DNA of 64,000 nt, from assembly GCA_007376405.1 (NCBI GenBank), contig VMGD01000003.1:336-64335 (forward strand), in the 5' to 3' direction. Numbering within the stretch: position 1 is the first letter of the stretch; each line of letters begins with the position of its first letter. A model generated the notes under the pieces. The model ran no database searches. It had not been told where the DNA came from and saw nothing but the letters and a program-made list of their open reading frames with translations. This stretch comes from Microgenomates group bacterium Gr01-1014_7 (GTDB lineage: Bacteria > Patescibacteriota > Microgenomatia > Daviesbacterales > UBA10151). Shown one piece after another: positions 2,514-55,330 of the stretch. The translations under genes and the position numbers were made by a program.

Positions 2514-4340
2514 ATGAATACTGCAGATTTTGTTCTAACCTATGGTGCCTATTCCAGAAGATCCTCTGAAGATTATGAGGATCGCCAAGTTGCTTCAATC
2601 GAAAGCCAGGAAAGAGAATTAAAGGAAGTTAAAGAAAGGTTAAACCTTAATGTTAAACAGCTTGTTTCAGAGTCGAGAAGTGCCCATACCATAGGACGTC
2701 CAGTATTTAATCAGCTTTTGGCTGACCTAGAAGATGGAGTAATAAATGCCATTTTAACCTACCACCCAAATCGTTTGTGCCGAAACGCATTTGACGCAGG
2801 AAGGCTGATTTATTTAATGGACGAGGGTAAACTCTTAGAGATTAGAACTCCATCACGAGTCTTTAAAAATACACCAGAAGATAAATTTATGCTTAATCTT
2901 GAGTTTGGGATTAGTAAAAAAGACAGTGACGACAAATCTGTGGTGGTCAAAAGAGGGCTTAGAAATAAGATAGAGCTAGGCTGGAGACCAGGTGTGGCTC
3001 CACATGGCTATCTGAATGATCGAGCTACAGAATCGGGCCACCGTAGAATATTAATTGACCCAGAAAGATTTGAGTTTATTAAACAAATATTTCAACTCAA
3101 ATATAAAGGTGTTCCAACTATGGAGATTCTTAGAATTGTCAATGAAGATTGGAAATTTAAAACTAGACCAAAAAAAAGATACCCTTCAGAACCACTTTCC
3201 TGCAGTAGTCTTTATAAGCTTTTAGGCAATCCTTTTTATTGTGGTAAATATTTTTATAGTGGGCAGTGGCATGAAGGAGCTCACGAGAAAGCTGTTGAAC
3301 CAGACATTTTTGACCAAATACAGATAATGTTAGGAGATAAAGGTTGCAGAAGACAACCAAAAACTCATGAATTTGCTTATACAGGAATGGTTAGATGTGG
3401 TGAATGCTCTGGTATGGTTACGGCTGAGGAGAAATGGCAAATAATTTGTTCAAAATGCAGGAATAAGTTTGCTCTGACAAGAAAAAACAGTTCTATATGT
3501 CCAGAATGTAATACTTTAATTGAAGAGATGGATCAACCAAGGATTTTGTACTACTCTTATTATCATTGCGGGAAAAAGATAAAACCCTGTTCTCAAAAAT
3601 CAATTGAAGTTACTGATCTTGAAGAACAAATCCAATTAATATTGGGTAGTATTGAGATTTCAGATTTTTTCTTATCTTGGGCTGTTGCAGAAATCCATAA
3701 GGATTTAGAGTCTGAAAAGGATTTTAGGGAGGATAAGGTTAAATCTGTACAAAGAGCTCATGAGGAATGCAGGTCTAAACTAGATAACCTGCTTAAGCTC
3801 AAAATTTCTCCTCTTAATTCTGATGGTAGTTTGATGAGTGATGAGAAGTTTAAGACCGAAAAACAGGCTCTAGAGACCGAATTAACAGGGTTGGAGAAAC
3901 AATTAAACGAAGTTGACAATAGGATGATACAAAAGGCTCAGGAAGCTGTGGATAAGTTTGATTTTGCTGCTAACGCCAAGGCTAGATTTGAAACTGATGA
4001 TCTGGCTGTTAAACGTGAGATACTTTCAACTCTTGGGTCGAACCTTACCTTAAAAGATAAAAAACTGGATTTACAGCCTCATCCAATACTCAACGCTATT
4101 AAAAAGATAAGGGAGGAAGAACCAAAAGTATCAAGAGGAGTAGAACCTTCAAATCAGCCTTTCACAAAAGCCCAAATGGATGCCTTTTACTCCTCAAATA
4201 TCACCGTGTTGCGGGGGCGGGAGTCGAACCCGCTGCCTCAAGATTATGCACTTAACTTGCATTACTGCAAGGGTAGGACTATATCATCACCCTGTACCGG
4301 ACGGTACGGGGCCCGGCGTGTAGTCTCTACGGGGTCCTAG
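2514..4340 (+). CDS. Large serine recombinase (phage-type integrase)
   Basis: N-terminal resolvase-type catalytic region (YSRRSSEDYEDRQVASIESQ); recombinase domain; Cys-rich zinc ribbon (CGECSG...CSKC...CPEC); C-terminal coiled-coil. The annotated 3' end reads through tRNA exon 2 and intron sequence on the opposite strand, so the true stop is uncertain. Confidence 0.7.
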   Translation: MNTADFVLTYGAYSRRSSEDYEDRQVASIESQERELKEVKERLNLNVKQLVSESRSAHTIGRPVFNQLLADLEDGVINAILTYHPNRLCRNAFDAGRLIYLMDEGKLLEIRTPSRVFKNTPEDKFMLNLEFGISKKDSDDKSVVVKRGLRNKIELGWRPGVAPHGYLNDRATESGHRRILIDPERFEFIKQIFQLKYKGVPTMEILRIVNEDWKFKTRPKKRYPSEPLSCSSLYKLLGNPFYCGKYFYSGQWHEGAHEKAVEPDIFDQIQIMLGDKGCRRQPKTHEFAYTGMVRCGECSGMVTAEEKWQIICSKCRNKFALTRKNSSICPECNTLIEEMDQPRILYYSYYHCGKKIKPCSQKSIEVTDLEEQIQLILGSIEISDFFLSWAVAEIHKDLESEKDFREDKVKSVQRAHEECRSKLDNLLKLKISPLNSDGSLMSDEKFKTEKQALETELTGLEKQLNEVDNRMIQKAQEAVDKFDFAANAKARFETDDLAVKREILSTLGSNLTLKDKKLDLQPHPILNAIKKIREEEPKVSRGVEPSNQPFTKAQMDAFYSSNITVLRGRESNPLPQDYALNLHYCKGRTISSPCTGRYGARRVVSTGS

Positions 4341-4469
4341 TGTTAATCGAAGGACTTCCCTCGGTATTACCCTAATAGGGTTTCACCGATATAGCCAAGT
4401 TCTCTCCGATAGTTACCCATCGGAGGGCCCATATTTGAGCCTTGTGTGCAGCCGTTACACTTCCCCGCG
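4209..4469 (-). tRNA. tRNA-Met(CAU), initiator type (C1.A72 mismatch, CGCGGGG...CCCCGCA-A like E. coli tRNAfMet), interrupted by a group I intron. Exon 1 is 4438..4469 and exon 2 is 4209..4248
   Basis: Minus strand reads CGCGGGG-AA-GTGT-AACGGCT-GCAC-A-CAAGG-CT|intron|CATAA-TCTTG-AGGCA-GCGGG-TTCGACT-CCCGC-CCCCGCA-A. Anticodon is CAT. T-arm is perfect. The 5' exon ends in U, as a group I splice site requires. Confidence 0.7.
4249..4437 (-). ncRNA. Group I self-splicing intron (about 189 nt, no ORF) inserted between nt 33 and 34 of the tRNA-Met anticodon loop
   Basis: Minus strand carries canonical R-like (GTAGAGACTACACG) and S-like (GATATAGTCC) core elements forming P7. An internal guide GGCC can pair with exon ...GGCU (P1, with U.G). 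The intron ends in G (omega-G) before the CAT anticodon. Confidence 0.75.
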
Positions 4470-9438: not shown

Positions 9439-9468
9439 ATTGACAATGTAATACAAATGTAATACAAT
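9439..9468 (+). promoter_or_regulatory. Promoter TTGACA, 17 bp spacer, TACAAT, directly abutting the ATG (leaderless); contains the direct repeat ATGTAATACA twice (possible operator)
   Basis: Read directly from the sequence. Confidence 0.45.
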
Positions 9469-9747
9469 ATGACTAGAATTAAGATTAACCAGTTGGTTTG
9501 GGATGAGTGGAATATTGAGCATATAAGAAAACATGATGTTACAAAAGATGAGGTTGAGGTAGTAGCTAAAAATATAGTAACTCATAAAAAAGCTAAAAAG
9601 GGGAGATATTTAATTATGGGAAGAGTAAGTTCAAGAATTTTGTCGGTAGCGATTAGTAGAAAAGGAATAGGAGTGTATTATCCGGTAATGGCAAGAGATT
9701 CAGCTAAAAAAGAAAGGAGAATAGTTTATGAAAAAGAAAAAATTTAA
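9469..9747 (+). CDS. brnT: BrnT-family (DUF497, RelE-fold) toxin
   Basis: VWDEWNIEHIRKHDV...RxISARDSAKKERRIVYE pattern; about 92 aa; followed by overlapping BrnA. Confidence 0.6.
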   Translation: MTRIKINQLVWDEWNIEHIRKHDVTKDEVEVVAKNIVTHKKAKKGRYLIMGRVSSRILSVAISRKGIGVYYPVMARDSAKKERRIVYEKEKI

Positions 9748-10006
9748 ATTCCCTGATTTTAATAAAATGACTTATGGAGAAGAAGCAAATTGGTGGGATA
9801 CCCATGATTGGGGAGAATTCTGGAATGAATTGGAAGATGTAGATATTGTGGTTGATCTTCATAAACCAAAAGAAGAAACTTTAATTTTAAGACTGCAAAA
9901 AAATTTAAAAGATAGGTTAACGGCAATTGCCCGCTCTAAAGGGTTAAATGTTTCAAGTTTAGCCAGAATGTGGTTAATGGAAAAACTGCAAGCCAGCAGA
10001 ACATAA
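9728..10006 (+). CDS. brnA: BrnA-family (CopG/RHH-type) antitoxin
   Basis: FKFPDF...EANWWDTHDWGEFWNE motif; C-terminal RHH (LRLQKNLKDRLTAIARSKGLNVSSLARMWLMEKL). Confidence 0.6.
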   Translation: MKKKKFKFPDFNKMTYGEEANWWDTHDWGEFWNELEDVDIVVDLHKPKEETLILRLQKNLKDRLTAIARSKGLNVSSLARMWLMEKLQASRT

Positions 10007-15681: not shown

Positions 15682-15939
15682 ATGTTTGGAAATAATCCGT
15701 TAAATGAGTTAATTGATTTATTGCTAGACATTAAAGACAAAGAATATATGAAAGATTTTCTTTTGGGGATTTTAACTCCAAAAGAACTGGAAGAAATACC
15801 TACCAGGCTTCAGATAGTTAAGATGTTGAAGCAGGGAATATCTCAGCATAAAGTTGCAGAAGATTTAAAAGTAGGTATAGCAACAGTAACCCGCGGTTCA
15901 AAAGAGCTGCAGAAAGGTAGATTTAAAGTGGTACGCTAG
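15682..15939 (+). CDS. TrpR/YerC-family small DNA-binding regulator
   Basis: 85 aa, HTH (ISQHKVAEDLKVGIATVTRGSKEL), Trp-repressor-like fold family; sits upstream of trpEG. Confidence 0.55.
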   Translation: MFGNNPLNELIDLLLDIKDKEYMKDFLLGILTPKELEEIPTRLQIVKMLKQGISQHKVAEDLKVGIATVTRGSKELQKGRFKVVR

Positions 15940-16122: not shown

Positions 16123-17559
16123 ATGGCGGCCAATTTTTATACCCCGGCTGGTGTATATCTTGGTTTGGTAAGTGTCGAATCTGCAGAAAATGATCCAAAA
16201 CAGCCATCATTTCTGCTGGAAAGTATTGAAAGAGGGGATAGTTTAGGTAGGTATAGTTATATTGGTGTAGGGCCCAAAGCAGGAGTAGTTCTTAGGGATG
16301 GAGAAATCTCCCATCATAACAGAGATGGTACAGTATCCCGTCTTAGTAATGCATCAAAAGATCCTTTAGCTGTGATTCGAGAAGAGGTATCAAGACCAAC
16401 TGTAAAAATCCCCCGGTTATCTCCCTTTACAGGAGGTTATGTGGGATACCTTGGGTATGAAATGATAAGTATCTTTGAACCAAAGGTTTCTGTTTCTAAC
16501 CCAGATGTATTAGGGGTTCCAGATGCAATGTTATTTAATTATGATCATATAATTGCATTTGACCATGCCCGTAATGAAATTAATGTGATTGGTAACATTC
16601 ATGTCAATGGTGATTTGGAAGAGCAATATCAGCAAACCACTGCCGCTATTGATCAGATTATAGACAGGATTAAGTCCCGACCCCCAATGATAATGCGGGA
16701 GCAAGAAATTGAACTTGAGCATCAATCAGCCCAATCTAATTTTGAGCATTCTAAATATTTAGAAGCAGTAGAAAAAGCCAGGGAATATGTTAGCGCCGGA
16801 GATGTAATTCAAGTTGTAATTTCGCAAAGATTTGCCAGGAAAACAGAGGCTGATCCATTTTCACTATACTGCGCATTAAGAATGATCAATCCTTCTCCTT
16901 TTATGACCTACCTTGATTATGGAGATTTCCAGATTATTGGTGCGTCTCCAGAATTATTACTTAGGGTTAACGAAGGAACGGTTACTACAAATCCGATTGC
17001 CGGCACCAGGCCGGTGGTCACTGCAGAAGAGGAAAACAAAAGATTGGAAGAGGAACTTAGTAATAATGAAAAAGAAAAAGCAGAACATCGTATGTTAGTT
17101 GATTTAGGCAGAAATGATGTAGGTAGGGTTTCGGCTCCGGGAACTGTGAGAGTGCCTGAACTGATGAAAATCAAGCGATTTTCTCATGTAATGCATATAG
17201 CTTCTGAAGTTCAAGGACAGCTTGCAGATCAATATTTCTCATTAGATGCTTTGCGCAGCACATTCCCGGCAGGCACTTTAAGTGGAGCACCAAAAATAAG
17301 AGCAATGCAAATAATAGATGAGCTTGAACCAGAAAAAAGAGGTCCTTATGGAGGAGTGATGGGATATATTGCTTACAACGGAAACGTCGAAATGGCAATT
17401 ACTATTCGGACCATGGTGTATAAAGACGGAATTGCGTATGTTCAAGCTGGGGGAGGAATCGTTTATGACAGTGTACCAGAAGAAGAATTTATAGAAACAA
17501 TTAATAAAGCAAAAGCATCGATGCGGGCTATTGATGTAGCAGAAGAGGAGTATGTATGA
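16123..17559 (+). CDS. trpE: Anthranilate synthase component I (TrpE-type chorismate-binding enzyme)
   Basis: N-terminal LLES...GRYSYIG motif typical of TrpE; chorismate-binding C-terminal domain. Confidence 0.7.
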   Translation: MAANFYTPAGVYLGLVSVESAENDPKQPSFLLESIERGDSLGRYSYIGVGPKAGVVLRDGEISHHNRDGTVSRLSNASKDPLAVIREEVSRPTVKIPRLSPFTGGYVGYLGYEMISIFEPKVSVSNPDVLGVPDAMLFNYDHIIAFDHARNEINVIGNIHVNGDLEEQYQQTTAAIDQIIDRIKSRPPMIMREQEIELEHQSAQSNFEHSKYLEAVEKAREYVSAGDVIQVVISQRFARKTEADPFSLYCALRMINPSPFMTYLDYGDFQIIGASPELLLRVNEGTVTTNPIAGTRPVVTAEEENKRLEEELSNNEKEKAEHRMLVDLGRNDVGRVSAPGTVRVPELMKIKRFSHVMHIASEVQGQLADQYFSLDALRSTFPAGTLSGAPKIRAMQIIDELEPEKRGPYGGVMGYIAYNGNVEMAITIRTMVYKDGIAYVQAGGGIVYDSVPEEEFIETINKAKASMRAIDVAEEEYV

Positions 17560-18200
17560 GCGCAGAAAGACAGGAAGGAGCTCCTAGAGTGCTTTTAGTT
17601 GATAATTACGATAGCTTTACTTATAACCTTTCTCAGTACCTTGCGGAATTAGGGGCAGAAGTTGAAGTGTATCGTAATGACAGAATAACTCTTGATGAGA
17701 TTGAGGAGATGAATCCAGACAAAATTGTTTTATCACCTGGGCCCTGTTCTCCTAAAGAAGCAGGGATATCAGTGGATGTGGTTAAGCGGTTTGGGGAGAG
17801 AATACCTCTTTTGGGAGTTTGTTTGGGGCATCAGTGTATTGGTGAAGCCTATGGCGCAGTAGTAGACAGAGCAGGAGAGATTGTGCATGGTAAAACCAGC
17901 ATGATTAGGCATAAAGATGTAGGAATTTTTGCTGGATTACCTAACCCATTTAAAGCAATCCGTTATCATTCACTGGTAATTTTGCCTGAAACTGTTCCCA
18001 GCGAACTAGAAATAACCGCAACTACTGCTAATAAGTTAGTAATGGGTATTAGACATAGAGAATATCCAATTCAGGGAGTCCAATTTCATCCTGAATCTAT
18101 TTTTACACCTCAAGGAAAAAGACTGTTGAGGAATTTTCTAAGACCAGGGTATCGGGATGAAGAAAGGCGCCAGCATTATTTCGGGCTGGGGTACCTTTAG
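17556..18200 (+). CDS. trpG: Anthranilate synthase component II (class I glutamine amidotransferase)
   Basis: GVCLGHQ catalytic Cys motif; HPES His motif; start overlaps the trpE stop. Confidence 0.7.
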   Translation: MSAERQEGAPRVLLVDNYDSFTYNLSQYLAELGAEVEVYRNDRITLDEIEEMNPDKIVLSPGPCSPKEAGISVDVVKRFGERIPLLGVCLGHQCIGEAYGAVVDRAGEIVHGKTSMIRHKDVGIFAGLPNPFKAIRYHSLVILPETVPSELEITATTANKLVMGIRHREYPIQGVQFHPESIFTPQGKRLLRNFLRPGYRDEERRQHYFGLGYL

Positions 18201-18210
18201 GAGCTAACAT

Positions 18211-18921
18211 ATGAAACAAGCTGCAATTTGTATATTAGATGGAATGGGGCCTCAAGCAGGAGGATATTTATATAACACCATAATTCAAAAGGCGGTGAGG
18301 GATTATGGTGCTAAAAATAATGACGATTTTCCTGAAATTATTTTATATTCGGTTCCGGTACCGGACTTTATTTCTAACAATAGATCAAAAGATAGAACCT
18401 TAAAAATGTTGCAGGCAAAAGTTAGAGAAACTAATAAACTAGAAATTTCATGTATATCGATTGCATGTAATACTGCACATATACTCTTAGAACAATTACA
18501 AAAGGAAACGGATATTCCCTTCGTTTCTATAATTGAGGAAACAATAAAAGGTGTTAAAAAAGATAAGGTAAGTGTAGTAGGATTAATGGGAACACCGTCT
18601 ACCTTAAGGTTTGGTTTTTATCAAGAGGAATTGAAGAAGGAAGGGATAAAATGTATAGTGCCTTCGAAAGCCCAAATTATTATTCTAGAAAGGGTTACTA
18701 GAAATATTATTGCAGGAAAAGTTCTTCAATCAGATCAAAGCAAACTAATATCAATTGCAGATTCTTTTAAAAAGAAAGGTGCAAGAGCTATTATTTTAGG
18801 CTGCACAGAGTTACCTTTAGGATTTCCTAAAAAGTACTCATTGCCAATTTATAATTCGGTTGAAGAATTATGTAAAGCCTTATTGCGTATATATTATGGA
18901 AGCAATACAATACAAAAGTAG
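18211..18921 (+). CDS. Asp/Glu/hydantoin racemase family protein
   Basis: ILDGMGPQAGG and CNTAH motifs. Confidence 0.6.
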   Translation: MKQAAICILDGMGPQAGGYLYNTIIQKAVRDYGAKNNDDFPEIILYSVPVPDFISNNRSKDRTLKMLQAKVRETNKLEISCISIACNTAHILLEQLQKETDIPFVSIIEETIKGVKKDKVSVVGLMGTPSTLRFGFYQEELKKEGIKCIVPSKAQIIILERVTRNIIAGKVLQSDQSKLISIADSFKKKGARAIILGCTELPLGFPKKYSLPIYNSVEELCKALLRIYYGSNTIQK

Positions 18922-18922
18922 T

Positions 18923-18952
18923 ATGAAACGTATTCTCACAGGGGATAGGCCA
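18923..18952 (+). repeat. Duplicated copy of the first 10 codons of trpS (MKRILTGDRP), left flank of the inserted BrnTA cassette
   Basis: atgaaacgtattctcacaggggataggcca here vs atgaaaagaatattaacaggggataggccg at 19520; same peptide; 23/30 nt identical. Confidence 0.6.
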
Positions 18953-18953
18953 A

Positions 18954-18982
18954 TTGACATTTGTATAACAGTGTAATACAAT
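18954..18982 (+). promoter_or_regulatory. Promoter TTGACA, 17 bp spacer, TACAAT, abutting the ATG (leaderless)
   Basis: Read directly from the sequence. Confidence 0.45.
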
Positions 18983-19267
18983 ATGACCAGAATCATTGTT
19001 AAGGGTTTAGTTTGGGATAGCATAAATTTGGAACATGTTAAAAAACATAATGTTTCTAAAGAGGAAGTTGAGGGAGCTAAAGAGATAATTTATCATAGGC
19101 GTACTTATGGTGGAAAATATTTGGCTACCAGCAGAAGCGGGAATAGATTAATAACTATTATTTTAAGGCGTCAAGGTTTGGGTAAATACTATGTAGTTAC
19201 AGCCAGAGATGCCAGTAGGAAAGAAAGGAGAAAAGTATATGAAATTGAAGAAAAGCAGAATTCCTAA
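18983..19267 (+). CDS. brnT: BrnT-family toxin
   Basis: Paralog of 9469..9747 (LVWDSINLEHVKKHNV...VTARDASRKERRKVYE). Confidence 0.6.
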   Translation: MTRIIVKGLVWDSINLEHVKKHNVSKEEVEGAKEIIYHRRTYGGKYLATSRSGNRLITIILRRQGLGKYYVVTARDASRKERRKVYEIEEKQNS

Positions 19268-19523
19268 ATTTAAAACCTATGCGGAAGAGGCTTCATTTTG
19301 GGATACGCATGATATAACTGATTTTGAGGATGAAACAGAAGATGTAGAAATTGTTTTTGAACTAAATAAGCCAAGAGATGAAACGATTGTTTTAAGGGTG
19401 CAAAAAGAAGTTAAGGAAAAATTGGATAAATTTGCCAGAAGTTCAGGATTAAATTTATCTACTCTTTCTAGAATGTGGCTGATGGAAAAATTACAAGAGA
19501 ATTTAAGAAAGGCAAAAATATGA
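19209..19523 (+). CDS. brnA: BrnA-family antitoxin
   Basis: EEASFWDTHDITDF motif plus C-terminal RHH. Confidence 0.6.
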   Translation: MPVGKKGEKYMKLKKSRIPKFKTYAEEASFWDTHDITDFEDETEDVEIVFELNKPRDETIVLRVQKEVKEKLDKFARSSGLNLSTLSRMWLMEKLQENLRKAKI

Positions 19524-20515
19524 AAAGAATATTAACAGGGGATAGGCCGACATATGATAGTTTTCATTTGGGAAACTATGTCGGGTCTTTAAAAAATCGA
19601 GTAAAGTTGCAGGATGCATACGAGTGCTTTTTTTTGGTGGCAGATTTACATGCGCTAACTACTCACTTCGATAAGACATCTGATTTGGAGAAAAATATCA
19701 GGGGTTTAATGTTGGGCAATCTTTCAATGGGACTTGATCCTAAAAAAGTAACATTTATTCTGCAGTCTCAAGAGCTGGAGAAACTTGAGCTGGCCTATAT
19801 TTTATCTACTCTTACACAAAGGACTTTACTGGAAAGACAGCCTGCCTTAAAAGAAAAGCTGGATCAAGGTGAACAGGACAGCTTGGGATTATATCAATAT
19901 CCGGTTTTAATGGCAGCTGATATTTTACTCCCCAAGGCTAATCTGGTGCCGGTTGGTAAAGATCAAAAAGCCCATGTTGAGTTTGCCAGGGATTTGGCAA
20001 TTAAGTTTAATAAATTATATGGAGAAGTTTTCCCGGTTCCGGAGCCTTTAATTGGAGAGGGTGGAACTTTGCCTGGAACAGACGGTCAAATCAAGATGGG
20101 AAAGTCTTTAAATAATGCTATTTTTTTGACTGATACACCTGAAGAAGTAGAGAAAAAAGTGATGAGTATGTATACGGATCCCAAAAGAATACACGCTACT
20201 GACCTGGGAACTGTTGAAGGAAACCCTGTTTTTATTTATCTTGATGCCTTCGCATCGGATAGTGACAAGCAACAAATAACAAGATATAAAGAACTTTATA
20301 GAAAAGGCCAGGTGGGAGATATTGAGGTAAAAAAGTTTCTGGTGAAAATTTTAAATAATTTTCTGGATCCTATTAGAAAAAGGCGTGCGCAGTTTGAAAA
20401 ACAGCCGGAATTGGTGGATAAAATCTTAAGAGAGGGAACAAAAAAAGCAAGAATTGAGGCCCAAAAAACTTTAACGGAAGTAAAAAAAGCCATGAAAATT
20501 GATTATTTTGTATAA
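19520..20515 (+). CDS. trpS: Tryptophanyl-tRNA synthetase
   Basis: HLGNY (HIGH-type motif) and KMGKS (KMSKS motif); class I Rossmann fold, short TrpRS length. Start is ATG 19520, overlapping the brnA stop (ATGA). Confidence 0.75.
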   Translation: MKRILTGDRPTYDSFHLGNYVGSLKNRVKLQDAYECFFLVADLHALTTHFDKTSDLEKNIRGLMLGNLSMGLDPKKVTFILQSQELEKLELAYILSTLTQRTLLERQPALKEKLDQGEQDSLGLYQYPVLMAADILLPKANLVPVGKDQKAHVEFARDLAIKFNKLYGEVFPVPEPLIGEGGTLPGTDGQIKMGKSLNNAIFLTDTPEEVEKKVMSMYTDPKRIHATDLGTVEGNPVFIYLDAFASDSDKQQITRYKELYRKGQVGDIEVKKFLVKILNNFLDPIRKRRAQFEKQPELVDKILREGTKKARIEAQKTLTEVKKAMKIDYFV

Positions 20516-35739: not shown

Positions 35740-36222
35740 ATGGCTGATCCAAATTCCCCGGAATTTAGTGAAACACCAACAGCAGATGCAGCAGAAGAAT
35801 TTTTGAGAAATGTAAGGGAAATTCACGCTATACAAAGAGCCAATAACACAATTGATCCCGAAGCAGCGAGAACTCAATGTAAGGAATTCGCTCAATTAAC
35901 TGAAGAAATCATGCAACAAGTTCAAAGCCTGCCTCCGGATGATTACCCCTTTGATACTAAGATTCCAGGCATTCAGGTTATAGAATTAGGAACGCAGCGA
36001 GCTATTGGGATTAATACCAAAGAAGCAACAATCCCTTTTAACCCTCTTCTTATAAGAGATCTTGTAATAATAGGAATTCCAAGTAGAGATTTACCATATT
36101 ATTCAGAGTGGGTTGTCCCGAAATATGTAATACAGGTAGAGCATAGAACAGAACCTGGGATGATCCCTCCTTTTCGGTCTACTCCAATTGAAGGAGATCC
36201 TCAATCTTATCTTGCCGGATAG
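35740..36222 (+). CDS. Hypothetical protein occupying the position of a BrnT N-terminus in a degenerate cassette
   Basis: ORF; promoter-like TTGATA/TAAAAT upstream. Confidence 0.25.
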   Translation: MADPNSPEFSETPTADAAEEFLRNVREIHAIQRANNTIDPEAARTQCKEFAQLTEEIMQQVQSLPPDDYPFDTKIPGIQVIELGTQRAIGINTKEATIPFNPLLIRDLVIIGIPSRDLPYYSEWVVPKYVIQVEHRTEPGMIPPFRSTPIEGDPQSYLAG

Positions 36223-36397
36223 AACACATTCGGGAGCAGAGGAGAGGTATTATGCTTTCGGTATTACTAACAGAGGACGTTATCTTCTAGTTTCCTTTAC
36301 CTTGAGGGGAAAACAGGAAGATCGGATTCGTCCTATTATGTCGCGGGAACAGACCAAAAAAGAGCGATTGTACTATCATAAAGAGAAAGCGAGGTGA
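36188..36397 (+). pseudogene. BrnT toxin C-terminal fragment (N-terminal FEWD...KH region missing; TTG start)
   Basis: HSGAEERYYAFGITNRGRYLLVSFTLRG...IRPIMSRE aligns to the C-terminal two thirds of the other BrnT copies. Confidence 0.4.
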
Positions 36398-36401
36398 ATA
36401 T

Positions 36402-36686
36402 ATGAAGAAAAAAATACGTAAAATACCAAGATTTAAAAATGAGGATGAGGAAAGGCAGTTTTGGTACACTCATTCACCGCTGGATTATCTTGATGATCTA
36501 AAACCTGTACAATTTGATTTTTCGGAGCTGAAACCGTCAACAAAAACCATCAGCATACGGTTGCCCCAATCTATGCTTGATCAGCTAAAAAGGCTGGCCA
36601 ATAAAAAAGATGTGCCCTATCAGTCATTACTGAAAATATTTTTGGGAGAAAAGATCAAAGAAGAAACAGTTGCAGTAAGCCCTTGA
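36402..36686 (+). CDS. brnA: BrnA-family antitoxin
   Basis: PRFKNEDEERQFWYTHSPLDY motif plus C-terminal RHH. Confidence 0.6.
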   Translation: MKKKIRKIPRFKNEDEERQFWYTHSPLDYLDDLKPVQFDFSELKPSTKTISIRLPQSMLDQLKRLANKKDVPYQSLLKIFLGEKIKEETVAVSP

Positions 36687-36719
36687 CAAGGTATTTAAAA
36701 AGGTTTTTGATTAAAGTAT

Positions 36720-36944: not shown

Positions 36945-37788
36945 AACTATCAAGTTAGGTTTACAAAAGAAAATTATTGGGCTAAAAATTAAAGAAATAG
37001 AAATTATTTCTCCTAAATCTTTTATTGGAAATGCAAAATTAGTAAAGGGTAAGAAAGTACTCAATATTTGGAGAAAAGCAAAGATTTTAGGTGTGGAATT
37101 AGACGGATCAGTAATACTATTTCATCTGAAAATGACTGGGCAATTAATATTTGACCCTTCGACTTCGCTCAGGGCAAGTAAGCGTTTAATTGGGGGACAT
37201 CCGACGCAAGATATGGTTGGGCCGCTGCCGAATAAGTCTACAAGGGTCATTCTCCAGTTTTCAGATGGATCAAAGATGTACTTTAATGATCAGCGCAGGT
37301 TTGGCTGGATAAAAGTAGTTGAAAGTTCAAAGTTAAAAGTGCAAAGTTTTTTAAAAAATTTGGGACCGGAGCCGCTGGAGGAAAGATTTAGCTGGCAGAT
37401 TCTGAAACAGAATCTTTTAAAGCATAAATCTCAACCTGTAAAGGTTACTCTAATGGATCAAAAGCTAATTTCCGGAGTGGGAAATATTTATGCCAATGAA
37501 GCCTGTTTTAATGCCAAACTTGATCCCCGGAAAAAGGTAAGCAGTTTGAGTGATGAAGAATTTAGGACTTTACATAGAGGAGTGGTTAAAGCACTCCGGG
37601 ATGGAATAAAGTATGGGGGTTCAACCAGGGCTCATTTTGTAGATAGTGAGGGCCATAAAGGCTATTTTTTAGATTATGCGTATGTTTATTGGAAAAATTC
37701 CCACCCATGCAAAATTTGTGGTACAGAAATTAAAAAGGTCCAACTGGGCGGCCGCGGCACCTACTTCTGCCCAAATTGCCAGGCTTGA
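36922..37788 (+). CDS. mutM: Formamidopyrimidine-DNA glycosylase (Fpg/MutM)
   Basis: N-terminal MPELPEVE (catalytic Pro2); C-terminal zinc finger CKICGT...CPNCQ. Confidence 0.8.
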   Translation: MPELPEVETIKLGLQKKIIGLKIKEIEIISPKSFIGNAKLVKGKKVLNIWRKAKILGVELDGSVILFHLKMTGQLIFDPSTSLRASKRLIGGHPTQDMVGPLPNKSTRVILQFSDGSKMYFNDQRRFGWIKVVESSKLKVQSFLKNLGPEPLEERFSWQILKQNLLKHKSQPVKVTLMDQKLISGVGNIYANEACFNAKLDPRKKVSSLSDEEFRTLHRGVVKALRDGIKYGGSTRAHFVDSEGHKGYFLDYAYVYWKNSHPCKICGTEIKKVQLGGRGTYFCPNCQA

Positions 37789-37813
37789 CAAAATACAGAC
37801 TGTATAATACAGT
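37785..37813 (+). promoter_or_regulatory. Promoter TTGACA, 17 bp spacer, TACAGT, with palindrome TACAGACTGTA (possible operator)
   Basis: Read directly from the sequence. Confidence 0.45.
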
Positions 37814-37824
37814 ATATACAATAA

Positions 37825-38127
37825 ATGAATGTTGTTAAAGAAGTTTTAGAGTTTGAATGGGATAAAGGAAATACTGGTAAAAATTTAAAACATAATGTAG
37901 AGGATAAAGAAGCAGAAGAAACTTTTTTAGACGAACATAGGTTTATTTTTAAAGACAAATTACACTCACAGGGTGAAGAGCGCTTTAGAATAATAGGTAG
38001 AACCAGGGAAGGAAGATTATTATTTATAGTTTTTACTATACGAGGTGAGAAAGTTAGAATAATATCAGCTCGAGATATTAACAAAAAGGAGGTGTACTTA
38101 TATGAAAAAAAAGTTAGTATTACCTAA
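37825..38127 (+). CDS. brnT: BrnT-family toxin
   Basis: EFEWDKGNTGKNLKHNV...ERFRIIGRTREGRLLFIVFTIRGEKVRIISARD, the classic DUF497 pattern. Confidence 0.7.
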   Translation: MNVVKEVLEFEWDKGNTGKNLKHNVEDKEAEETFLDEHRFIFKDKLHSQGEERFRIIGRTREGRLLFIVFTIRGEKVRIISARDINKKEVYLYEKKVSIT

Positions 38128-38371
38128 ATTCAAAAATGAAGATGAGGAGAGAAAATTCTGGTGGAATTTAGATCTGTCGAAATATTATGAACCAGAGGAT
38201 TTGGAACCTGTTAGTTTTCCAAATTTAAAACCTACTACCAGGTCTATTTCGATTAGAATTCCGGAATATCTTTTAAATAGGGTTAAGGAAAAAGCTAATG
38301 CGATTAATATACCTTATCAGTCTCTGATTAAAGAGTATATTCACAAGGGAGTGTTAGCTTCTAAGTATTAA
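38102..38371 (+). CDS. brnA: BrnA-family antitoxin
   Basis: PKFKNEDEERKFWWNLDLSKYYEPEDLE plus RHH. Confidence 0.65.
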   Translation: MKKKLVLPKFKNEDEERKFWWNLDLSKYYEPEDLEPVSFPNLKPTTRSISIRIPEYLLNRVKEKANAINIPYQSLIKEYIHKGVLASKY

Positions 38372-38395: not shown

Positions 38396-38581
38396 ATGGC
38401 TAAATTAATTCCATTTCAAATTTATTTACCCAGGCAACTGCGTTCTGAAATTGACAAAATGCGTAAAGAAACAGGTGAGAGTCTAAGTGCTTATATGCGC
38501 CAAGCTGTTAAGGAGCGGTTAGAAGTTACCAATAATAAAGCCGATTTTCCAATGAAAGATATTAAGATAATTTCTCCTTAA
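38396..38581 (+). CDS. Orphan RHH/CopG-family small protein
   Basis: IYLPRQLRSEIDKMRKETGESLSAYMRQAVKERL, a ribbon-helix-helix pattern. Confidence 0.4.
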   Translation: MAKLIPFQIYLPRQLRSEIDKMRKETGESLSAYMRQAVKERLEVTNNKADFPMKDIKIISP

Positions 38582-39204
38582 CCTTTGCCCAAAATGCCAA
38601 ATAAAGGGTGAAAAGATTCACTTTCCTGCAAGCCAAAAACTATATATGTTCTTATCGTAGAACGAGGGGTCTGCAATAAAAATAATTCAGCTCTTAAATA
38701 ATTTTCCGGCAAAGCTTTCAATGTATTCTCTCCAATCATAAGATTTGATCTTACATTTGAGGCAGCAGCTTCAGCAAGAAAATCAGCCTGTCTACCAGGT
38801 TGGCCAGATATACCATAATGCAACTGTTCCGGAGATCCTATGTTGCCATGAACTACCTCACCGGTATTTACTCCAATTCCAAAACGAACCTGCCATTTAA
38901 TCTCCTGAAAATCAACTAAAGCTTCCCTTAACTCTAGCGCGGTAGTTACAGCTTGCAAGATATGATCCGTTTGTCCTGGAAAAACTCCAAAAAAAGCTCT
39001 AGTGTAGTCACCACTAAATATATCTGCTATGGTTCCGCTATTTCGGTGGATTATTGGTTCGGTTACTTTGCAAAGAGCATTTATATACATTACTTCTTCC
39101 TGCGGATTTTCAAATGCCATATCTAAACTGCTTATACGTAAACTTAAAGATGTACGTGCACTCTGACCGGATGGAAATTCTGGTGGTCTGCCTTCAGCCG
39201 TCAT
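38578..39204 (-). CDS. Minimal class III nucleotidyl cyclase domain protein (paralog-type of 32409..32993)
   Basis: FGIGVNTGEVVHGNIGS and YGISGQPGRQADFLAEAA motifs. Confidence 0.5.
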   Translation of the reverse strand: MTAEGRPPEFPSGQSARTSLSLRISSLDMAFENPQEEVMYINALCKVTEPIIHRNSGTIADIFSGDYTRAFFGVFPGQTDHILQAVTTALELREALVDFQEIKWQVRFGIGVNTGEVVHGNIGSPEQLHYGISGQPGRQADFLAEAAASNVRSNLMIGENTLKALPENYLRAELFLLQTPRSTIRTYIVFGLQESESFHPLFGILGKG

Positions 39205-43088: not shown

Positions 43089-43117
43089 TTGACATAATAC
43101 ATAATGTATGGTATGGT
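43089..43117 (+). promoter_or_regulatory. Promoter TTGACA, 17 bp spacer, TATGGT, with palindrome ACATAATGT
   Basis: Read directly from the sequence. Confidence 0.4.
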
Positions 43118-43129
43118 TACATACATAGG

Positions 43130-43426
43130 ATGGATATTGATTTTGATGATTTAGAGGGTTTTGACTGGGATCAGGGCAATCTTGAGCATATTAAGAAACA
43201 TGATGTTGCCAGGGAAGAATGTGAGCAGTCATTTTTAAATAAGCCTGTTTTTATAAATAAAGATGAAACTCATTCACAGAAAGAAGAACGGTTTCGCCTT
43301 TACGGACAAACTGACAGTGCAAGATTAATAATTTTAATATTTACAATCAGAGATAAAAAAATTAGGGTAATCTCGGCAAGAGATCAAACTAAAATGGAAC
43401 GGGAAGAATTTAGAAAAAGGAGGTGA
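43130..43426 (+). CDS. brnT: BrnT-family toxin
   Basis: FDWDQGNLEHIKKHDV...ERFRLYGQTDSARLIILIFTIRDKKIRVISARD. Confidence 0.7.
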   Translation: MDIDFDDLEGFDWDQGNLEHIKKHDVAREECEQSFLNKPVFINKDETHSQKEERFRLYGQTDSARLIILIFTIRDKKIRVISARDQTKMEREEFRKRR

Positions 43427-43432
43427 AGATTT

Positions 43433-43711
43433 ATGAAAAAGTTAAAAAAAATACCAAGATTTAAAAACGAAGATGAGGAAGATAAATTCTGGTCTACTCA
43501 CGATACCACTGATTACTTTGATTTTAGCAAAGCAATAGTTAATCCCAGCTTCCCAAACCTGAAGCCGTCTACAAGAAACATCACTATGAGGGTTTCTGAA
43601 TCAATGCTAAGAGATCTGAAGATGTTGGCCAATAAAAAGGATGTTCCGTACCAATCACTGGCTAAGATGTTTTTAGATGAGAAAATAAAGGAGGCACAAA
43701 TTAATAGTTGA
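43433..43711 (+). CDS. brnA: BrnA-family antitoxin
   Basis: PRFKNEDEEDKFWSTHDTTDYFD plus RHH. Confidence 0.65.
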   Translation: MKKLKKIPRFKNEDEEDKFWSTHDTTDYFDFSKAIVNPSFPNLKPSTRNITMRVSESMLRDLKMLANKKDVPYQSLAKMFLDEKIKEAQINS

Positions 43712-52711: not shown

Positions 52712-55330
52712 ATGGCATATGTAGCTGATTTGCATATTCATTCCAGATTTTCCAGGGCTTGTTCACAACAACTTAATATTCCAAATTTAGTAGAGTGGGC
52801 CAAATTAAAAGGCATAAATCTTTTAGGGACAGGGGATTTTTTACACCCACTTTGGCTAACAGAATTAAAACATCAGCTTAAAGAAGATGGGTCAGGGTTT
52901 TTAAAGGGTAAAGCGGAAAGCGTAAAGGGGGAAGAGGTAAGATTTGTTCTGACAGTAGAGATTGCTTCAATGTATTCTCATGGAGGCAGAGGCAGAAGAA
53001 TCCATAATCTGGTTTTTATGCCCGGCTTTGAGGCTGCTGAAAAATTCCAAAAAGCACTTTTAGCAAGAAGAGCAACTTTAGCTTCAGATGGTAGGCCAAT
53101 TGTAGGTATTCCCTCAAAAGAACTTCTGCAGATGGCGCTAACTGCTGACAAAAAAGCCATTTTTATTCCGGCTCACTGTGTCTTACCCGATACCCAAGTG
53201 CACACTGTTAAAGGAATGCAAGAAATACAAAGCATAAAGCCAGGTGATTTAGTTTATACCCACAATAATCGTAAAAGAGAGGTAACAGAAGTCATCAAAC
53301 ACGAGCACGACGGGACTTTATACAAAATTCAACCTTGGTATTTCTCTCCTGGTTTAGAAGCGACCGAAGAACACCCTTATTATGGTTTCCATATAAAATA
53401 TTGTCCTTCAACTGGTTCTCCTTGCCTTCCTACAGAAGCACATAAAAGAAGATGTAAACATAAATTTTATGAACAATATATCCCAATATGGCTTCCTGCA
53501 CAGGATTTAAGAGATGGAGATGTTTTGGTTTTTCCTAGATTTACTAATACTACACCAATGCCAACGCTTTTTTTAGATAAAGAATTAGCATATCAAGCCG
53601 TAGGTGAGTTAATCAAAACAGGAGGTTCAAGAGGCCATATTTTTAACCAGCAAATTCAAATTGATGAGAGCTTTTGCAGATTAATTGGCTACTATTTAGC
53701 TGAAGGTTCCCTTAGTACAACAAAAGGACACATAAGCCTCGCATTTAATCAGAGTGAGAGTGTGTATATTGAAGATGTAAAGCAATTGATTGAGAAAGTA
53801 TTTGGAATAAAGCATATACGCATATATAGAAGATTAAATAATAAGGGGGTGGAGATAACCATTTATTCTAAATTAATTTCAGAACTTTTTGCCAAACTTT
53901 TTTATACAGACAATTCGCATAAAGCATTTAATAAGAATTTACCTGACTGGATGCTTCATTTGCCAGAATTTCTGCAGGCTCAAATCTTGCTAGGATGGTG
54001 GAGGGGTGATCATGGTTATACTGTTTCGCGATCTTTAATGAATCAAATGAAAGTTATTTGTTTACGTCTGGGGATTGTTCCCTCGATAGGTGTTGACAAA
54101 TCAGAGAATCATCTTAAGAGAGGAAATCATATATATCAGGATAGAATTATCAAAGCAACTTCAGATCTTTATTACTTCTCCGGGCTTGCTTTTTTTGAAG
54201 ATAAATATAATCTTTTAAGTGATCCTGTATTTGAGGAATCTAAGCGTAAACTTACAAGAAGACATGGATGGATTGATAAAGACTATATCTATATGCCTAT
54301 CCGTAAAATTACCAGGAGGAAGTATACAGGGGAGGTTTTTAATTTGGAGGTAGACGAAGATAATTCCTATATAACTGAATTTGCTGCAGTACATAATTGC
54401 TGGACGCCCTGGTTTGGTCTATTTGGGTCCGAAAGTGGATATGATTCGCTAGAGGAGTGTTTTGAGGATTTAACAGACCATGTGTATGGGATTGAAACCG
54501 GGCTCTCAAGCGATCCGGCTATGAACTGGAGGATAAAGGAACTTGATAACCGCTCAATTATTTCCTGTTCTGATGCGCATTCCTTGCCAAATCTGGGAAG
54601 AGAGGCAACGGTGATAGAAGGGGAATTTAGCTATAATGGTTTATGGAAAGCTGTTTCTAACCCTTCTATCATTCTGAGGCCGAAGGCCGAAGAATCCCCC
54701 ACGAATGTGGGTTCTGACATTCGTCAGAGGTCCTTCGCTAAAGCTCAGGACGACAATAGAATTGTCGGTACCATTGAATTTCATCCTGAGGAAGGGAAAT
54801 ATCATTATACCGGACACAGAAACTGCGGAGTTAAATATGATTCGGAACAGGAAGTTGCAAACGGGGTTATTTGTCCAAAGTGCAAAAGACCCTTAACCGT
54901 GGGAGTAATGAGTAGAGTAGAGAAGATCGCAGGGCGATCAGTAGATGAAGTAGGGATGTTAGAGGATGAGCAGGGAATAATCAAAAGCAAGGTCTTTAAT
55001 AGGCCGGGATACCGGATGTTAGTCCCGCTTTTGCAGATTATTGCGGAAGCGCTACACTCTACTCCAACAAGCCAAAAAGTATTAAACGAGTATAAAAAGT
55101 TAGCAATTAATCTGGGTGGAGAAATTAAGGTTTTAACTAAGGTTGATGTGTCGGAAATTGCCAAACTTTCCGGCCCCAGAATTACTGAAGGGGTGGAAAG
55201 AATGAGAAAAGGTACTATTGTAATTGATCCCGGATATGATGGAGTCTATGGAGTGGTAAAAATATGGCCCGATGGGGAATCGATTGAAGAAAGTAGCGCA
55301 GAAGCTCCACAGTTGGGATTGTTTGATTAG
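52712..55330 (+). CDS. PHP-domain phosphoesterase with a C-terminal Zn ribbon (COG1379-like), interrupted by an intein
   Basis: N-terminal DLHIHSRFS PHP motif; CPKCKRPLTVG zinc ribbon; intein at codons 156-562. Confidence 0.65.
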   Translation: MAYVADLHIHSRFSRACSQQLNIPNLVEWAKLKGINLLGTGDFLHPLWLTELKHQLKEDGSGFLKGKAESVKGEEVRFVLTVEIASMYSHGGRGRRIHNLVFMPGFEAAEKFQKALLARRATLASDGRPIVGIPSKELLQMALTADKKAIFIPAHCVLPDTQVHTVKGMQEIQSIKPGDLVYTHNNRKREVTEVIKHEHDGTLYKIQPWYFSPGLEATEEHPYYGFHIKYCPSTGSPCLPTEAHKRRCKHKFYEQYIPIWLPAQDLRDGDVLVFPRFTNTTPMPTLFLDKELAYQAVGELIKTGGSRGHIFNQQIQIDESFCRLIGYYLAEGSLSTTKGHISLAFNQSESVYIEDVKQLIEKVFGIKHIRIYRRLNNKGVEITIYSKLISELFAKLFYTDNSHKAFNKNLPDWMLHLPEFLQAQILLGWWRGDHGYTVSRSLMNQMKVICLRLGIVPSIGVDKSENHLKRGNHIYQDRIIKATSDLYYFSGLAFFEDKYNLLSDPVFEESKRKLTRRHGWIDKDYIYMPIRKITRRKYTGEVFNLEVDEDNSYITEFAAVHNCWTPWFGLFGSESGYDSLEECFEDLTDHVYGIETGLSSDPAMNWRIKELDNRSIISCSDAHSLPNLGREATVIEGEFSYNGLWKAVSNPSIILRPKAEESPTNVGSDIRQRSFAKAQDDNRIVGTIEFHPEEGKYHYTGHRNCGVKYDSEQEVANGVICPKCKRPLTVGVMSRVEKIAGRSVDEVGMLEDEQGIIKSKVFNRPGYRMLVPLLQIIAEALHSTPTSQKVLNEYKKLAINLGGEIKVLTKVDVSEIAKLSGPRITEGVERMRKGTIVIDPGYDGVYGVVKIWPDGESIEESSAEAPQLGLFD
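53177..54397 (+). mobile_element. Intein (407 aa) with a LAGLIDADG homing-endonuclease domain
   Basis: Block A: Cys1 followed by VLPDTQV; two LAGLIDADG blocks (LIGYYLAEGS, ILLGWWRGDHG); C-terminal ...AAVHN followed by the extein Cys. Confidence 0.75.
54673..54754. repeat. Palindromic element family A, copy 1 (82 bp), in frame inside the PHP/intein gene C-extein
   Basis: Conserved termini TCTGAGGCCGAAGGCCGAAGAATC ... TCCTTCGCTAAAGCTCAGGACGAC (imperfect TIRs); internal hairpins CCCAC/GTGGG and CTGAC/GTCAG. Confidence 0.6.

Follow-up and report, generated by a model that had tools for sequence, protein, structure and literature searches.

A BrnT/BrnA cassette between two copies of the trpS start in a Daviesbacteria genome, and a model for its spread by homologous recombination

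In the 64,000-nucleotide (nt) stretch of contig VMGD01000003.1 from Microgenomates group bacterium Gr01-1014_7 that was analysed here, hereafter the window, a small toxin–antitoxin operon of the BrnT/BrnA (BrnTA) type lies between a racemase gene and trpS, the gene for tryptophanyl-tRNA synthetase, and is bracketed by two copies of the first ten codons of trpS. The initial annotation had proposed that this operon was inserted at the trpS 5′ end and that a 30-nt repeat marks the event, and both points are borne out. It had also suggested that such cassettes are mobile, naming identical flanks everywhere and an absence of further duplications as the contrary case; related genomes instead show unlike flanks, and duplications at other cassettes. 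We consider it probable, though by no means secure, that the cassette travels without a recombinase and spreads through homologous recombination, with a carried fragment of its target gene serving as homology arm.

The duplicated trpS start and its cassette

The features of the locus, all on the forward strand, are as follows.

18211–18921 (+): racemase gene (PF01177), with its stop codon at 18919–18921
18923–18952 (+): trpS relic or pseudo-start, ATGAAACGTATTCTCACAGGGGATAGGCCA, an ATG plus nine codons reading MKRILTGDRP, one base past the racemase stop
18954–19523 (+): BrnT/BrnA cassette from promoter to stop, about 570 nt
18954–18959 (+): −35-like hexamer TTGACA at the left edge of the cassette, where homology with cassettes of other genomes starts
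18962–18970 and 18972–18980 (+): two direct 9-mers, TGTATAACA and TGTAATACA, 10 nt apart, a candidate BrnA operator
18977–18982 (+): −10-like hexamer TACAAT, 17 nt from the −35 hexamer and directly abutting the brnT ATG (18983)
18983–19267 (+): brnT, 94 amino acids, divergent BrnT-family toxin
19239–19523 (+): brnA, 94 amino acids, CopG/ribbon-helix-helix antitoxin, overlapping brnT by 29 nt
19505–19512 (+): purine-rich AAGAAAGG within the last brnA codons, 7 nt ahead of the trpS ATG, a candidate trpS ribosome-binding site
19520–19549 (+): functional trpS start, ATGAAAAGAATATTAACAGGGGATAGGCCG, the second repeat copy, encoding the same peptide MKRILTGDRP
19520–20515 (+): trpS, tryptophanyl-tRNA synthetase, 331 amino acids (PF00579, E=8e-66)

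The relic and the functional start are identical at 24 of 30 nt, and all six differences are synonymous; six random substitutions would spare the peptide with a probability of about 1e-4 (for this pair, 6/6 silent). The pair is the longest direct repeat that a repeat search returned for the region, and its local-alignment score falls within the top 0.34% of a null in which the upstream flank of one cassette is aligned to the downstream flank of another. The reading frame of the relic runs on to 17 codons and ends at a TAA at 18974–18976, and the brnA stop (19521–19523) overlaps the trpS ATG (19520–19522) in the sequence ATGA. Both the racemase–relic–promoter join and the cassette–trpS join are also present in an independent assembly (Logan SRR8863434). 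A cassette-free junction, written as a construct, reads racemase–ATGAAACGTATTCTCACAGGGGATAGGCCGACATATGAT.

The antitoxin carries the sequence signature of the BrnA/CopG family, matching PF12441 at 53.6 bits against a curated cut-off of 28 (E=4e-14). The focal BrnT alone has no Pfam match at E≤0.01. It is 48% identical to the toxin of another cassette in the window (cassette 1, below) and 86% to that of contig L005; PF04365 is matched by 20 of 21 aligned BrnT relatives, which are 24–86% identical to the focal toxin, and the profile of their alignment matches the structure of Brucella BrnT, PDB 3U97, at E=6e-5. An AlphaFold2 model built from a shallow, four-sequence alignment of window proteins only (mean predicted local distance difference test score 73) has the RelE-like fold of BrnT: in a Foldseek search of the PDB, 3U97 was the sole match at E≤0.001 (E=5.9e-4, probability 1.00), with template-modelling scores of 0.58/0.69 and a root-mean-square deviation of 2.8 Å over 73 columns. 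By this transitive, profile-level homology the focal protein is a divergent BrnT (PF04365) and a predicted toxin.

Recurrence at trpS and at other gene termini

The relatives of the window's TrpS belong to Candidatus Daviesbacteria, within the Patescibacteria, and six other species (L005, L007, L037, L042, L043 and L057) carry a cassette of the same type at exactly the same site, next to TrpS proteins 58–85% identical to that of the window. In all six the brnA stop lies on the trpS start, and a 32-nt promoter, TTGACTTTTGTATAACAGTGTAATACAATATGAC, is nearly invariant. The piece of the trpS start that stands upstream of the −35 hexamer in these species reads MQKRILTGDRPT or MKKRILTGDRPA, each closed by a stop, MKRILT.. 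or MKKRILT..; that of L005 has decayed to IKRILI, and in L007 no relic abuts the BrnTA cassette, the relic lying 1.36 kb upstream of trpS. Only an antitoxin remnant, the promoter and the relic persist in L008, and in L039 and L050 the site is occupied by another BrnTA subtype (about 37% identical), whose promoter is related and whose relic has decayed. In most close relatives trpS begins with a plain start. The TrpS tree shows a scattered distribution of the cassette, class A and class B states, and the DNA upstream of the relic is unalignable in every pair. Between pairs drawn from L037, L042 and L043 the cassettes are 87–98% identical in nucleotide sequence and the adjacent trpS genes 60–84%; at least in these pairs, the cassette is by sequence divergence younger than its host gene.

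The trpS start has collected several kinds of cargo, comprising two BrnTA subtypes, PhdYefM–PIN and PhdYefM–ParE pairs and a membrane-protein open reading frame (ORF), and several of these show both the relic and the ATGA overlap. L019 has, in this order, a relic, a promoter and the genes of a PhdYefM antitoxin and a PIN toxin; the stop of the toxin gene falls on the trpS ATG. In L007 (2642–4004) a PhdYefM–PIN and a BrnTA cassette stand in tandem, occupying the 1.36 kb between relic and trpS, with the PIN toxin stop inside the −35 hexamer of the BrnTA cassette that follows. PhdYefM–ParE pairs occupy the site in L017, L023 and L038, and a 460-nt insert in L016 encodes a 74-amino-acid membrane protein and is flanked by a 50-nt repeat, of which 30 nt precede the ATG. 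The other end of the gene is also used: a third BrnTA subtype lies at the trpS 3′ end in L014, L037, L041, L050, L057 and L130, and L037, L050 and L057 have toxin–antitoxin cassettes at both ends. This trait is one of the site and of the process rather than of BrnTA. A further insert, in L009 (3323–3950), consists of a 175-amino-acid ORF without a Pfam match, inserted past the racemase gene and followed by an apparent displaced racemase 3′ end (..ALLRMELGGNTILKKN), which suggests that terminus-duplicating insertion also carries cargo other than toxin–antitoxin genes.

Scanning metagenome contigs with a BrnA alignment yielded 80 further loci. Where both flanks were available (63 cassettes), the 120 nt preceding the promoter were aligned to the 180 nt past the brnA stop, and in about 20 of the 63 the flanking direct repeats score beyond the 99th percentile of the null. 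The repeats measure 17–81 nt, usually consist of terminal coding sequence, and vary in length even at one site.

trmD 5′ repeats: the first 18–27 codons (L095, L096, L097)
sucD-like 3′ repeats: the last 12–14 codons (L037, L115, L116)
trpS 3′ repeats: the last codons (L014, L041, L050)
Non-coding repeats: L102, L128, L144, L135/136

The sucD-like gene now ends at a TGA inside the TTGAC of the cassette, and its displaced end persists past brnA. Across the family the brnA stop and a downstream start overlap in 14 of 41 cases, and upstream stops often fall in or beside the −35 hexamer. Movement is most apparent at trmD, where the cassettes of L095, L096 and L097 are 97–100% identical over about 600 nt and trmD itself is 80–97% identical, with upstream DNA that is 25–50% identical and upstream genes that are unrelated or 37% identical at the protein level. 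The initial annotation's view that the cassettes target gene starts is therefore too narrow, since they also lie at gene 3′ ends with duplicated 3′ termini, and unrelated cargo occupies the trpS start.

Duplicated trpS starts also exist without a cassette. Ten cassette-free loci have two copies of the start with a short linker, of about 9 codons, between them: in L006, L009, L031, L032, L040, L041 and L084 the arrangement reads in frame as MKRILT-LRQAQGENA-KKRILTGDRP, at about 50–80 nt ahead of the conserved KRILTGDRP of trpS, and in L012, L028 and L029 the duplicated start forms an upstream ORF ending in ATGA. The linker holds a 10–11-bp hairpin, GTGAGAATNC/GNATTCTCAC, which pairs with codons 2–5 of the second copy and is maintained by compensatory changes, GAGAATGC/GCATTCTC, GAGAATAC/GTATTCTC and GAGAATTC/GAATTCTC, giving G–C, A–T and T–A at the same position. 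Rfam returned no match on the hairpin region of L009. The palindrome core of the linker, CCCTTCGACAAGCTCAGGG, is found elsewhere too, including two in-frame insertions inside genes. No copy of this class B linker was found in the window at up to 3 mismatches, and a looser search returned the short palindrome core elsewhere. Left of the −35 hexamer, the L057 relic retains the left half of the linker palindrome, and in L043, L008, L039 and L050 decayed or partial vestiges of the palindrome are left (as CCCTT in L039 and L050); the palindrome may, on this distribution, be an entry point for the cassette. An origin of the class B linker as a cassette-deletion scar was considered and set aside, there being no convincing similarity to the cassette ends by eye.

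As observations in their own right, the palindrome CCCTTCGAC(A/N)(A/N)GCTCAGGG recurs at L013:3505, L020:998, L021:3237 and window positions 54730–54760, and its in-frame insertions, of about 6–7 codons, lie in two conserved genes, trpS of L017 (4503–4524) and a gene with a tRNA-binding domain in L023 (5421–5442). They are reminiscent of the in-frame palindromic elements of Rickettsia.

The window itself holds five BrnTA cassettes, as the initial annotation had listed, four of them complete and one truncated. Besides the focal one (cassette 2) they are:

9440–10006 (+): cassette 1, brnT 9469–9747 and brnA 9728–10006, with an NTP-transferase/hexapeptide gene and a sucC-like gene on either side; its subfamily is that of the focal cassette
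36215–36686 (+): cassette 3, the C-terminal half of brnT and an intact brnA (36402–36686), lacking the promoter and the N-terminal half of brnT
37785–38371 (+): cassette 4, brnT 37825–38127 and brnA 38102–38371, with the fpg stop TGA inside its TTGACA
43089–43711 (+): cassette 5, brnT 43130–43426 and brnA 43433–43711, flanked by an amidohydrolase (pyrC-like) gene and pyrB

A duplication is not a feature of each of these: none flanks the other four. Three side observations concern their surroundings. An orphan ribbon-helix-helix gene of 61 amino acids (38396–38581, +; PF01402, E=2e-6) follows cassette 4. Just beyond it, 38581–38599 matches the fpg 3′ end (37763–37781) at 16 of 19 nt, readable as LCPKCQ versus FCPNCQ, and may be a displaced fpg terminus, but it lies inside the 3′ end of a convergent gene (38578–39204). 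Finally, the TGA inside a TTGACA hexamer serves as stop codon at three sites, 36683–36688, 37785–37790 and 43706–43711, for brnA of cassette 3, fpg and brnA of cassette 5, respectively; the hexamers that follow cassettes 3 and 5 may represent promoters of the downstream genes or remains of a further cassette.

Hybrid relics and the proposed route of spread

Fifteen pairs of relic and functional copy (from trpS 5′, trmD 5′, sucD 3′ and trpS 3′ termini) comprise 167 codons and 78 nt differences, with 52 differing codons synonymous and 15 non-synonymous. When all, three quarters or half of the changes were placed in an unconstrained relic, simulated non-synonymous codons averaged 55, 43 and 29, respectively, and none of the 2000 runs per case gave a number as low as 15; the pairs are not phylogenetically independent, so that the P value serves as a guide only. 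This excess of silent differences is most simply read as a sign that both copies were shaped inside functional genes of different lineages.

Several relics, moreover, look like hybrids. In the window, relic codons 2–5 (CGT ATT CTC ACA) do not match the present trpS start and instead match trpS of the nearest cassette-free relatives, L006, L084 and L009, at 13–14 of 15 nt. The functional codons 2–5 (AGA ATA TTA ACA) match L005, the nearest relative with a cassette, at 14 of 15 nt, and from the shared core ACAGGGGATAGGCC onward the functional trpS is closest to L006 again. This pattern is suggestive of a single exchange inside the 14-nt core, by which the left copy would pass from native to incoming sequence and the right copy from incoming to native. 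At trmD the last 45 nt of the relic, TTTACCGGACCTTTTGATACGAGGATGCTTAAAAAGGCAATCA, are identical in L095, L096 and L097, this cassette-proximal part being a decayed piece of trmD (GPFDTRMLKKAII vs GPFEESIVKRAM), and the first ~18–36 nt are specific to each locus, with the switch from local to common sequence at different points in L096 and L097. A common proximal and a local distal part imply that the trmD fragment travels with the cassette and that the join falls inside the repeat. Likewise, L007 and L019, which have the same PhdYefM–PIN cargo, have in common a derived Pro-to-Leu codon in the adjoining relic, the first 18 nt of which differ between them.

We favour recombination because of these hybrid relics, their cassette-linked proximal halves, the variable switch points and the silent differences. 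Under this model the upstream 30-nt pseudo-start would be the displaced native 5′ end of trpS, and the first ~15–25 nt of the present gene would have come in with the cassette. After DNA uptake the cassette would move among related genomes by homologous recombination: its left relic and its right gene start are both homologous to a single resident gene terminus, and a circle (in a Campbell-type event) would yield the same product, terminus–cassette–terminus, as a linear piece that crosses over once in the relic and once in the gene. Any genome with the gene could receive the cassette, irrespective of its upstream DNA, which would explain the unrelated upstream neighbours, and cargo could be swapped within the same terminus frame. 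The last brnA codons would then supply the trpS ribosome-binding site, with the brnA stop on the trpS ATG, so that an essential gene would depend on the cassette for its expression; this dependence, together with toxin addiction, would guard against its deletion. A site-seeking activity of the cassette itself, which had been raised as a possibility, explains the targeting less well than homology carried by the cassette and visible in the hybrid relic. Competence and recombination genes have been reported in Patescibacteria (PMC12455944), and integration by recombination at flanking core genes has been proposed for small toxin–antitoxin islets in other bacteria (PMC13617665, PMC12359135). For the cassettes described here, the recombination enzymes, the route of DNA uptake, the expression dependence and the stabilising effect are elements that we infer.

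A number of points weigh against this model. The cassettes of the window and L005 are about 80–90% identical in nucleotide sequence and their trpS genes 75–85%; because these values are similar, the window insertion could be old and vertically inherited since the ancestor shared with L005. Neither a recombination intermediate nor a donor nor a same-species empty allele was found, and exact-protein look-ups of TrpS, BrnT and the racemase, made in search of a cassette-free allele of the same species, returned only the same two assemblies. The related sequences are all metagenome assemblies, in which an identical repeat of 570 nt may cause chimeric joins downstream of the repeat; the relics, for their part, sit in the unique upstream part of each contig, and chimeric assembly cannot create them. 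The assignment of native and donor sequence in the window is based on four informative sites only, and no flanking duplication above the null was found at window cassettes 1, 4 and 5. The homology arms are short, about 18–55 nt, which is near or below the lengths for efficient RecA-type recombination. Lastly, the model leaves the origin of the first duplication at each target unexplained; it may have arisen by illegitimate joining at microhomology (ATGAAAA at right junctions) or from an integrase-borne ancestor.

This last gap would be filled if the repeats were attL/attR-like products of an integrase or transposase acting in trans, or if the cassette were an eroded integrative element whose remnant was only spread by recombination between flanks. 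Terminus-targeting integrative elements carry a replacement terminus and leave the displaced native end as a relic, one copy stemming from the former host, so the picture of terminus, insert and terminus is the same, and the gene-terminal location and co-orientation of the cassettes fit as well. We nevertheless judge such an origin unlikely. No integrase or transposase lies in or beside the cassettes, whose 570 nt hold two ORFs only; the junctions have neither conserved terminal repeats nor a common core; the repeats vary from 17 to 81 nt, even at a single site; many targets would require many specificities; the relic switch points differ between L096 and L097; and among 61 loci no large insert is bounded by trpS-start relics, the longest being the 1.36 kb with two toxin–antitoxin cassettes. 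An enzyme that moves the cassettes from elsewhere in the genome is nonetheless conceivable.

One ancient insertion in an ancestor of Daviesbacteria, in which the trpS start was duplicated in tandem, followed by vertical descent with many losses and no horizontal movement, would suit the four-species clade of L037, L039, L043 and L050, all of which have a cassette at the site, the similar cassette and trpS identities between the window and L005, and the junction GGCCA-(A/G)(C)TTGA common to the window, L037 and L042. We regard it as improbable, because in several pairs the cassette is more alike than trpS, no pair has related upstream neighbours, species with a cassette are interspersed among cassette-free sisters, sister species have different cassette subtypes at the same site, a relic so old should hold many non-synonymous changes yet does not, and the cassette at trmD is ~100% identical in contexts that have diverged. 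Selection on the upstream copy, as an upstream ORF or leader that regulates the toxin–antitoxin operon or trpS by translation or RNA structure, could alternatively account for the excess of synonymous differences. The relic does keep an ATG and its native upstream context, its ORF stops at a TAA 6 nt before the brnT ATG in the window and at three other loci, and the duplicated start of cassette-free relatives has the hairpin kept by compensatory changes; the start codon, in contrast, is lost in L005, L050 and L039, relics differ in length (10 to 27 codons), in frame and in stop position (within the −35 or the −10 region), a role of this kind does not apply to relics of 3′ termini, and there is no Rfam match, all of which makes a regulatory function a still fainter prospect than ancient descent. 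Chance or faulty assembly, finally, might be suspected of a short, 80% identical match in an AT-rich genome, but with its high rank in the cross-locus null, its wholly silent differences, the same structure in other species and the agreement of independent assemblies, this explanation is hardly credible.

Expression signals, significance and comparison with known systems

The sequence TTGACA-N17-TACAAT matches the promoter consensus at 11 of 12 positions, and its position directly abutting the toxin ATG is a family trait. That this ATG is the real brnT start is supported by the toxin N-terminus, MTRI, which is conserved through synonymous codon changes. At canonical sigma-70 promoters transcription begins 6–8 nt past the −10 hexamer, and the same geometry here would yield transcripts without the brnT start codon. 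The idea of leaderless expression put forward in the initial annotation thus conflicts with canonical promoter geometry, and its extension to each cassette does not hold either: only in cassettes 1 and 2 of the window does the promoter abut the ATG, the best hexamer pair of cassette 4 ending 11 nt ahead of it and a 12-nt gap separating the −10 hexamer and ATG in cassette 5. It is possible that promoter geometry differs in these bacteria, that only read-through transcripts are translated into toxin, the consensus promoter being used for brnA and trpS, or that some other promoter drives brnT. Within the spacer, the motif GTAWWACA-N-TGTAATACAAT is conserved across 33 distinct cassette promoters. 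The 9-mers TGTATAACA and TGTAATACA, one helical turn apart, make a good candidate for a ribbon-helix-helix operator, a role that is plausible because the spacer repeats are conserved across the cassette family; the segment TGTATAACAGTGTAATACA is a candidate site for binding by BrnA or BrnTA. As a separate matter, contigs of Logan SRR8863434 break exactly in the 30-mer TTGTATAACAGTGTAATACAATATGACCAG (L002:1–30 and L166:3751–3780; window 18961–18990), which indicates that the conserved promoter is a repeat in the assembly graph of that community.

The start of brnA was chosen by homology to MKKKK-type relatives, and the gene has an AAGGAG of its own at 19225–19230. At its other end, AAGAAAGG at 19505–19512 is the probable ribosome-binding site of trpS, and in other species, too, the brnA gene linked to trpS retains AAGGAG or AAGAAAGG there. 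Neither a terminator-like site nor another good promoter-like site was found between brnA and trpS, and because nothing of the kind separates them trpS is most likely co-transcribed and translationally coupled with brnA. The locus also sets traps for annotation. In a mechanical ORF list trpS begins at a GTG (19475) within brnA, where homology places the real start at ATG 19520, and the relic creates a spurious ORF of 38 codons (18860–18976).

Upstream, the same neighbourhood contains a gene of the Trp-repressor family (15682–15939; PF01371, from precomputed annotation) and, at 16123–18200, anthranilate-synthase-type genes (Chorismate_bind, GATase), followed by the racemase gene and trpS; this tryptophan-related neighbourhood is unusual for a genome of this kind. 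An Rfam scan of the window around the focal region found nothing relevant. Far from it, a full-length match to the group I intron model (73.7 bits, E=8e-17) lies on the reverse strand at 4255–4447, overlapping the end of a forward-strand ORF (2514–4340), and no tRNA or rRNA host gene was identified for it.

It is an open question how toxin–antitoxin systems spread among chromosomes and endure there, independently of plasmids, phages and transposons, and the question is sharper in streamlined genomes with a strong deletion bias. The relics are informative here since each records its event, preserving the native gene end, the part that travels with the cassette and the rough position of the crossover. 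If the recombination model is true, it explains why cassettes are wedged at gene termini and why one site gathers different cargo, and it accounts for resistance to loss through addiction combined with the capture of expression signals of an essential gene. A broader idea, which we advance quite tentatively, is that ultra-small Patescibacteria have a general mode of recombinase-free gene movement, in which cassettes of toxin–antitoxin genes or other small cargo carry part of the terminus of a conserved and often essential gene, home by recombination to that terminus in whatever genome has it, replace the gene's promoter, ribosome-binding site or stop with their own and so hold the gene hostage; a promoter abutting the start codon through its −10 hexamer might in addition give antitoxin-only transcripts and set the ratio of toxin to antitoxin. 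On the practical side, relic ORFs and false long starts (such as the GTG at 19475 for trpS) mislead annotation, the 30-nt promoter repeat breaks assemblies, and terminus-armed cassettes suggest a design for gene insertion in Patescibacteria, for which genetic tools are few.

Four established forms of mobility were considered for the cassettes and found unsupported. A transposon or insertion sequence would sit badly with only two toxin–antitoxin ORFs, no terminal inverted repeats and duplications of 17–81 nt; an integron gene cassette, with the absence of attC and of any palindromic element, and with a brnA stop that overlaps the next start or lies 1–2 nt from it. A site-specific integrative element is disfavoured by the lack of an integrase in the cassette, and between relic and gene in the 61 loci, and of a common junction core; Xer/dif-like or attC-like sites were dismissed on finding no conserved motif in the junction sequences compared.

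Among known systems, the closest in gene content is BrnT/BrnA of Brucella abortus (3U97; PF04365, PF12441), with which the focal operon shares the BrnT fold, a CopG/ribbon-helix-helix antitoxin and two overlapping genes of ~90 codons. It departs from that family in a toxin too divergent for the Pfam model, whose activity is predicted from sequence, and in its setting at the terminus of an essential gene with stop and start codons overlapping, which is not part of the family description. Integron cassettes and pdif modules are likewise small, discrete toxin–antitoxin units without a recombinase, and like the L007 pair they form tandem arrays; chromosomal integron arrays often hold self-promoted toxin–antitoxin cassettes, and some pdif modules of Acinetobacter plasmids carry brnT/brnA. 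The present cassettes differ in having no attC or XerC/D-type sites, for which there is no room because they abut neighbouring genes by 0–7 nt: each begins at the −35 hexamer 1–7 nt past the previous stop, or contains that stop. Their flanks are instead direct repeats of host coding sequence. Integrative elements share with them the direct repeats of a gene terminus that flank the insert, one copy restoring the gene and the other left as a displaced relic, the two stemming from different hosts; they differ from the present case, which has no integrase, no conserved core, repeats of variable length, many targets and an insert of 570 nt.

The nearest parallel in behaviour is with short insertions borne by recombination, of which the minimal mobile elements of Neisseria are a comparable example. 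Here, too, the same cassette is found at the same site in different genomes, is more similar than its flanks and has no recombinase. Recombination-spread islets (PMC13617665, PMC12359135) share with it the lack of a recombinase, the location between conserved genes, the patchy distribution and the varied cargo per site, and their spread is credited to DNA uptake and recombination, as proposed here. Unlike those islets, the cassettes have both arms from one gene terminus, a duplicated coding segment of 17–81 nt, so that a conserved upstream neighbour is not needed for insertion; their relic is a hybrid of recipient and travelling sequence; and the cassette is fused to the start or stop codon of its target. 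Literature searches found no description of terminus-duplicating toxin–antitoxin cassettes in Patescibacteria. What is new, then, are the arms drawn from one terminus, the hybrid relic, the fusion to the start and stop codons of essential genes, and the several toxin–antitoxin types gathered at one site in Patescibacteria.

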